NCBI GenBank assembly: GCA_019057795.1
Contig: JAHLWS010000063.1
Location: 1-63,649, forward strand
Length of the DNA stretch: 63,649 nucleotides
Source: Promethearchaeota archaeon
Lineage (GTDB): Archaea > Asgardarchaeota > Lokiarchaeia > Sigyniarchaeales > SOKP01
Direction of reading: 5' to 3'
The notes under the pieces are model-generated. The model had not been told where the DNA came from, made no database searches, and saw nothing but the letters and a program-made list of their open reading frames with translations. Each line of letters opens with the position of its first letter. The first letter of the stretch is position 1. Below are positions 23,753 to 23,962 of the stretch, piece by piece. Both the position numbers and the translations under genes were made by a program.

Positions 23753-23962
23753 TTAAGTAAAACCTTCTTGTTCTTGAACCAATAATCAAGGAACATCACC
23801 GTAAGTACAAAGTACTCAGGTTCAACCGTGAGGGTTTTCGTGCCCTGTAATAATTTTCTTACAGTTTTGACATTCCAAGCGTACAATTCACATTTTATCT
23901 GGTATTTTAACTTCGTTTAGATGTCCGCAAAAAGGACATTTTACGTTGCTCGTAAACTTCAT
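23753..23962 (-). CDS. GDCCVxC-like selenoprotein candidate, 69 aa, four TGA/Sec codons
   Basis: MKFTSNVKCPFCGHLNEVKIPDKMUIVRLECQNCKKIITGHENPHGUTUVLCTYGDVPULLVQEQEGFT*; TGA at 23890, 23824, 23818 and 23788; TAA at 23755-23753. Confidence 0.85.

Follow-up and report, generated by a model that had tools for sequence, protein, structure and literature searches.

The window analyzed here, the whole 63,649-nucleotide stretch of a Promethearchaeota archaeon contig, carries on its minus strand, at positions 23753-23962, a coding sequence of 69 amino acids plus TAA that belongs to the GDCCVxC/GOS_B family, as identified by its reading frame, an HMM match and its homologs. From the ATG at 23962 the frame is interrupted only by TGA at codons 25, 47, 49 and 59 before the TAA (23755-23753), and it specifies five Cys (residues 9, 12, 31, 34 and 52) and four predicted Sec. 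An initial annotation of this DNA had described the same frame and the same number of Cys and Sec codons, and our codon-by-codon reading agrees with it. All four UGA codons fall within 35 codons, and the Sec density is 4/69, or 5.8%. Standard ORF calling (table 11) misses the gene, as had been pointed out, and calls instead an off-frame ORF of 62 amino acids with a TTG start (23886-23698), which was treated as a shadow and not as a real gene because the Sec frame holds the conservation. The probability that four random stops are all TGA is about 0.003 in one sequence; judging from the codons, the TGA pattern is not the product of chance. The genes next to it in the window, for a methyltransferase and for a membrane exo-endo-phosphatase, have no relation to it. 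Farther away, three adjacent small membrane proteins (19496-21213) resemble isoprenylcysteine/phospholipid methyltransferases by eye only, and a glycyl-radical-type enzyme, also recognized by eye, lies upstream of them (16058-18397). A cold-seep contig, X1, possibly from the source sample, matches positions 23682-23871 over 190 nt with one mismatch and includes codons 47, 49 and 59 as well as the SECIS element described below. As for the RNA runs, X2, the sole true metatranscriptome, covers the flanks but leaves out the gene itself. X1 and X3 probably represent DNA, and these data have no bearing on expression either way.

With U at the TGA codons, the translated protein scored 51 bits against the NCBIfam model NF041374 (GDCCVxC), whose cut-off is 40, and the family assignment made in the initial annotation was thereby supported. 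The copies in the cultivated strains MK-D1 and Loki-B35 scored 49.9 and 59 bits, respectively. Of the nine Cys/Sec positions of the family (CPxC, C, CxxC, CC, C, C), eight columns align exactly and U47 is offset by one residue. The idea that the TGA codons occupy family Cys positions was then correct for codon 25 (23888-23890, the Cys of MPxxxC), codon 49 (23816-23818, the second Cys of the CC pair) and codon 59 (23786-23788, the Cys of P-C), but codon 47 (23822-23824) is one residue off the CC pair, and the surrounding motif is HG-U-x-U and not GDCC. The Loki form has a 3-residue insertion and the sequence HG-U-x-U-V-x-C where the family has GD-C-C-V-x-C, and in the alignment the literal GDCCVxC motif with adjacent CC is absent from the Loki copies. 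Therefore, U47, the first chalcogen of U-x-U, stands for the first Cys of the CC pair displaced by one residue, and the nine chalcogens are retained. Since membership in the family is defined by the HMM and the motif in the name is only a description, the Loki form was filed as a variant subfamily. NF041374 corresponds to the hypothetical protein GOS_B, which goes back to Zhang & Gladyshev 2008 (PMC2398784) and for which a later list gives a single Sec and no function (PMC13188914).

An ordinary protein search yielded one relative only, because genes with in-frame TGA are not called. The homolog search located the gene in 62 of the 400 genomes of the phylum, and a profile search of the same 400 genomes gave only weak unrelated extra matches. 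Twenty-seven of the 154 genomes of the window's order carry the gene, with TGA at the same four columns every time. When 25 loci were parsed codon by codon, the four Sec columns were TGA in 100/100 cases and the five Cys columns were TGY in 125/125; protein identity among homologous Sec loci is 36-91%. A fifth TGA, at C34, was found in one divergent copy and is the sole exception at the Cys columns. An all-Cys form with the GDCC motif is present in about 35 genomes of three other Asgard families, of which the two identified are Heimdallarchaeota. The TGA/TGY alternation that had been suggested as a check is thus seen across Asgard genomes, the four columns being TGA in Loki and Cys in Heimdallarchaeal and other non-Loki homologs. 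A SepSecS ortholog was found in 5/5 Sec-form genomes and was missing in the 5/5 Cys-form genomes tested, one of which gave a weak partial match. In a midpoint-rooted tree built from only 68 columns, a branch with support of 100/94 separates the Sec form from the rest, and within the Sec form the sequences group according to host family. This would fit one origin that predates the divergence of the two host families, followed by patchy loss. The gene is found in the cultivated P. syntrophicum MK-D1 (NZ_CP042905.2, 3273937-3274146) and Ca. L. ossiferum B35 (CP104013.1, 5389816-5390028), so the four-Sec protein can be sought in proteomes.

The core of a lokiSECIS element, identified by motif and covariation, starts 20 nt past the stop (23698-23732, minus strand). 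In it, AUGA is followed by a stem of 9 bp, by an A-rich loop of 11 nt whose last two letters are AG, and by GA, in agreement on every point with the lokiSECIS defined by Mariotti et al. (PMC4989117). Across 15 homologous elements, seven of the nine pairs have both sides changed, and 91% of the cells pair compared to 24-58% in slid controls; as the elements are related to one another, shuffle counts are not to be read as probabilities here. These compensatory pairs bear out the expectation of a eukaryote-like SECIS in Lokiarchaeia. Genome-wide, the strict motif was counted 15 times, compared to 2-5 in shuffles; nine of the 15 follow TGA-containing frames, namely four VhuD, PrxL, VhuU, the four-Sec gene and two more candidates. 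With a looser pattern, a match was obtained downstream of 19/26 Sec loci and 0/4 Cys loci, and most of the misses have recognizable variants. The Rfam search at the locus found no SECIS. Folding places an accessory hairpin 3′ of the core (23680-23697, minus strand), and the whole 3′ UTR element (23670-23752, minus strand) includes a weak AU-rich lower stem closing a three-way junction, a fold based on MFE only (z = -1.4) and weak if taken alone. The same arrangement of an extra hairpin 3′ of the GA and a lower stem accompanies SECIS elements on contigs C5, C15, C22, C26, C60, C78 and C87, and a special role of the hairpin as an aid for four UGAs was ruled out, since the remaining SECIS elements of this genome are followed by such a hairpin as well. 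The extra hairpin was not found in the published lokiSECIS model, as far as the available part of that source extends (PMC4989117).

Other SECIS-associated loci were observed in the course of this analysis. One of them (G000:C26:53929-54126, plus strand; L140:1430-1624) encodes a membrane peptide of 65 amino acids with a single helix and a GGG-U motif, and has a lokiSECIS of its own at 54130. It has one TGA conserved in 34/154 genomes, nearly all of one genus, and no NCBIfam match; on the basis of its codons and its SECIS it is a second selenoprotein outside the published lists, which may resemble SELENOK/S. A candidate for a third is a protein of about 120 amino acids (G000:C78:176434-176793, plus strand; L142:8435-8794; also L089 and L096) that contains the tandem motif GC-U-U and has a separate lokiSECIS. 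Its gene, also without an NCBIfam match, lies in a cluster of ACR3, methyltransferase-HgcA-like and ArsC-like genes, and is duplicated in some genomes, where it stands directly upstream of the four-Sec gene. At G000:C78:173942-175606 (plus strand) there is a 555-amino-acid fusion of a CpaM-like methyltransferase and an HgcA-like corrinoid domain with an NVWCAARG cap motif, which scores below the HgcA cut-off and is followed by a ferredoxin-like gene. A well-formed lokiSECIS with accessory hairpin at G000:C24:23608 (minus strand), for which no TGA-containing frame was found within 60 nt upstream, possibly marks another hidden selenoprotein gene. A 99-amino-acid ORF with a G-U-C-G motif and a lokiSECIS (L078:1192, minus strand, in G044) is HesB-like by appearance only, and a second SECIS to which no ORF was assigned lies between arsM and the four-Sec gene at L081:2361 (plus strand, in G214).

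The machinery for Sec insertion that the initial annotation had asked about is present in the genome. There are two SelD genes that themselves contain a TGA (Sec) codon, a SepSecS gene with an adjacent SelB-like factor (EFSec), and a PSTK candidate that matches the KTI12/PSTK family. A tRNA-Sec(UCA) gene lies between EFSec and SepSecS (C73:91757-91912, plus strand; also L141). After removal of a 33-nt insert in the D-loop and a 30-nt insert in the T-loop, it yields a 93-nt cloverleaf with a UCA anticodon, the 9/4 arrangement and an encoded CCA. Both inserts, which are common to close relatives, would be putative non-canonical introns, and we infer that they are spliced; in G002, the inserts are in the anticodon loop and the T-loop instead. 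The Rfam search of the genome returned no tRNA-Sec match, a false negative because the gene is split by the two putative introns, and such inserts may also account for the missing Rfam tRNA-Sec match in about half of the congeners. At the level of sequence, these results confirmed that 23753-23962 is a real and well-supported selenoprotein gene, and recoding of all four TGA codons as Sec is very nearly certain.

A structure model was made on the sequence with U replaced by C. The model, which is confident (pLDDT 93), has strands at residues 4-8, 15-19, 28-30 and 37-39 and, after these, two short helices (50-54 and 60-66). The positions of C9/C12 and C31/C34, the two CxxC knuckles (23861-23938, minus strand), whose Cys are kept in the homologs but for C34 in the divergent one, suggest that the N-terminal half is a Cys4 zinc ribbon. 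On this the model and sub-threshold Pfam ribbon matches agree; the zinc site is predicted, and the best structural Z is only 3.8. Searches of solved structures by sequence, by Foldseek and by VIA-align gave no clear match, which does not imply a novel fold. The sequence has no GMxCxxC motif of the HMA-type ferredoxin-like fold, and what the model shows is a beta-ribbon whose C-terminal part forms short helices. The remaining chalcogens, U25, U47, U49, C52 and U59, would make up a second, Sec4-Cys site, as judged from the sequence and the secondary structure. The near all-or-none distribution, in which the ribbon Cys are kept and four of the other five are converted, says that the two sets probably differ in chemistry.

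The genes found near members of the family point to mercury and other metals. Bacterial Cys homologs are present on 351 plasmids. In all 11 plasmid regions inspected, the gene is directly behind merT, merTP or merP (nine regions) or a 107-amino-acid MerT-like ORF beside MerR (two regions). Most of these modules are under MerR, and the stretches inspected contain no merA. The databases also contain proteins in which a MerT/MerC-like transporter is fused to a C-terminal GDCCVxC domain. Intact merA (TIGR02053 above the cut-off, C-terminal CC, no NmerA) is present in only 8/154 genomes of the order, and in seven of the eight the four-Sec gene is just upstream of it, in five directly and in two across a MerB-like gene, against a base rate of 27/154; these merA loci are not independent because they are related, with 5/8 in one genus. 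In the eighth (L117, G234:C36), a frameshifted relic of the four-Sec gene and a decayed SECIS precede merA, and in a ninth genome the four-Sec gene stands before a broken merA. The Loki MerA proteins measure 447-467 amino acids; nothing precedes their catalytic core, and the CC motif closes the chain. Elsewhere, the gene is beside a heavy-metal P1B-ATPase in two genomes and within ACR3/ArsM/HgcA-like clusters in four, and a thioredoxin-like gene accompanies it in some loci. Counted over whole genomes, MerB-like genes co-occur poorly with the four-Sec gene (3/16 genomes). No metal gene is nearby in 13 of the 27 carriers, including the source genome and all seven of family f2 (Promethearchaeum, Lokiarchaeum), nor in the Asgard Cys-form loci examined, and the source genome has neither merA nor merB.

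Taking this context into consideration, we propose that the four-Sec protein is probably a cytoplasmic scavenger or chaperone of soft metals (Hg, As, Cu). The suggestion of a soft-metal, e.g. Hg, chelator in the initial annotation gains support from the bacterial mer modules and the Loki merA loci, chelation itself being a prediction. In the proposed pathway, one 3′ lokiSECIS together with EFSec and tRNA-Sec would recode the four UGAs, as the comparative evidence indicates. C9, C12, C31 and C34 are predicted to hold the N-terminal half in a zinc ribbon, and U25, U47, U49, C52 and U59 to form a selenolate-rich second site. This site would capture soft metal(loid) ions, in the first place Hg(II) and plausibly As(III), Cu(I), Ag(I) or Cd(II). 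The ions could be picked up in the cytosol or as they leave the transporter, and be handed to whichever disposal system is present, be it a MerA that lacks NmerA, a MerB-like lyase, a P1B-ATPase or ArsM/ACR3. In genomes that encode no such partner, the source genome among them, the protein may act as a stand-alone buffer. By general chemistry, mercury prefers selenolate and binds it far more tightly than thiolate, so a cell with Sec enzymes would gain from a Sec sink. The protein could then serve as a selenium-based decoy that shields the Sec-dependent HdrA, VhuD, VhuU and SelD from Hg, enzymes that a Cys version would be unable to out-compete. The bacterial transposon Tn5563, which contains merRTP and a GDCCVxC-family gene, is the parent of Tn5563a, which raised the Hg MIC in two strains and lowered it in six (PMC4447125). 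Because its effect is mostly to lower the MIC, the Cys protein alone would be no strong sink. A more specific version of the proposal is put forward tentatively and may well be wrong. It holds that a selenometallothionein-like chaperone arose a single time in Lokiarchaeia, ahead of the divergence of their two main families: a zinc ribbon with a Sec4-Cys site that out-competes the selenoenzymes of the cell for Hg(II) and acts as an in-trans NmerA for MerA. If true, no prokaryotic protein family described so far would be richer in Sec, and the gene would offer a minimal natural reporter of how a eukaryote-like SECIS that does not depend on SBP2 recodes several UGAs processively.

The strongest competitor, although unlikely, is a redox protein in which U-x-U and the other selenols form a reversible diselenide or selenylsulfide. 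Such a protein could be a small reductant, e.g., for ArsM, arsenate reductase or oxidized proteins, and the mer/ars context would reflect metal-induced redox stress. Oxidoreductases are the majority among characterized selenoproteins (PMC13188914), ArsM and the thioredoxin-like gene occur in some loci, and the gene is retained in genomes without a metal context. Nonetheless, the protein has no thioredoxin fold and no CxxU/UxxU box except U49xxC52, nine conserved chalcogens in about 60 residues suit metal ligation better, and the bacterial gene is tied and fused to Hg uptake proteins. Less likely still, the protein could be a metal sensor or adaptor, or a carrier of an essential cofactor (Zn, Cu, Fe-S), with a structural or exchangeable metal at the second site and a ribbon that docks on and regulates a transporter, a reductase or a signaling enzyme. 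A fold weakly resembling zinc ribbons of the interaction type (NZF, Z 3.8; LysW, Z 2.7), one PAS-GGDEF fusion (P0104) and the frequent sensitization of cells by the Tn5563a module, as expected from an uptake module, are consistent with this role. However, those Z-scores are at background level, the lone P0104 fusion may be a read-through artefact, and four costly Sec are hard to explain at a purely structural site.

A selenium storage or transport protein like SELENOP, a function that had also been contemplated at first, is very improbable. The Sec density would be in keeping with storage, and with one SECIS for four UGAs the amount of full-length product could scale with the selenium supply. 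In storage proteins, the number and position of Sec vary freely; here they are fixed at the ligand columns, with four Sec in all but one locus, and the ribbon Cys are not converted, which makes a store unlikely. Besides, the gene is restricted to 27 of the 154 genomes and is linked to mer/ars genes and not to the Sec machinery. Finally, it is scarcely credible that this is not a selenoprotein, i.e., that it is a pseudogene or that TGA is read as Trp or Cys: the public predictions P0001, P0002, P0004, P0006 and P0007 show Trp at the four Sec columns and a few loci are decayed (G234, G054, G202), but the Trp is a gene-caller artefact of a TGA=Trp code, all non-Loki homologs have Cys at those columns, long table 11 ORFs are intact in a genome of 31% GC, and the TGA is conserved across two families with a covarying SECIS and the Sec machinery present.

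The preferred reading, that of a soft-metal scavenger, points to the use of Sec for metal(loid) ligation rather than redox catalysis, and gives the function-unknown GOS_B a testable role in mercury handling. With 210 nt, four UGAs and one SECIS, the gene is also a compact test of processive Asgard recoding without SBP2. The extreme selenium density noted initially holds for prokaryotes and is no record when set against some animal SELENOPs.

By HMM the four-Sec gene belongs to a known family; what is new is how many Sec it has, its motif, the type of its SECIS and its occurrence in another domain of life. In the part of the literature that was searched, GDCCVxC/GOS_B was not reported from archaea or with four Sec. 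A survey of more than 400 Asgard genomes (Huang 2024) listed seven selenoprotein families, GDCCVxC/GOS_B not among them (PMC11227280), and a 2026 review, which covers 119 prokaryotic selenoprotein families, puts the upper range at 2-3 Sec (PMC13188914). The present gene adds a family to the former and tops the maximum of the latter. It shares with GOS_B/NF041374 a score above the HMM cut-off, the length, the nine chalcogen positions and mer-linked neighborhoods. While GOS_B has one Sec, a bacterial SECIS and links to merT/merP, the Loki form is archaeal, has four Sec and a 3′ lokiSECIS, is linked to merA, ATPase or ars genes, and constitutes its own clade with GDCC rebuilt as HG-U-x-U and the insertion. 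The selenoproteins known from Lokiarchaeia are SelD, VhuU/FrhA, HdrA, VhuD/FrhD, Prx-like and DsbA-like proteins, and in HdrA-VhuD one SECIS serves several UGAs, up to six over about 2 kb (PMC4989117, PMC11227280). The four-Sec gene has in common with them the 9-bp/11-nt lokiSECIS near the stop and one SECIS serving several UGAs. It differs in that its product has, in the model, no oxidoreductase fold and holds four Sec in a single 69-amino-acid chain.

Two groups of metal-binding proteins offer a functional comparison. NmerA, MerP and CopZ are small soft-metal binders of the ferredoxin-like HMA fold with a GMxCxxC motif, encoded with MerA, MerT or a P1B-ATPase. The four-Sec protein is likewise small, predicted to bind metal and encoded with MerA or a P1B-ATPase, the adjacent Loki MerA having no NmerA. 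However, it is a predicted zinc ribbon without GMxCxxC, and its hand-over of metal would be a prediction from the neighborhood. Metallothioneins such as bacterial SmtA, and SELENOP, are small and/or chalcogen-rich, and SELENOP is a multi-Sec protein that binds Hg. No sequence relationship between these and the four-Sec protein was found. It resembles them in being small, chalcogen-rich and likely multi-metal and, like SELENOP, multi-Sec, but it differs in having a single SECIS, in not being secreted, and in the fixed ligand geometry that the model places on a folded ribbon.
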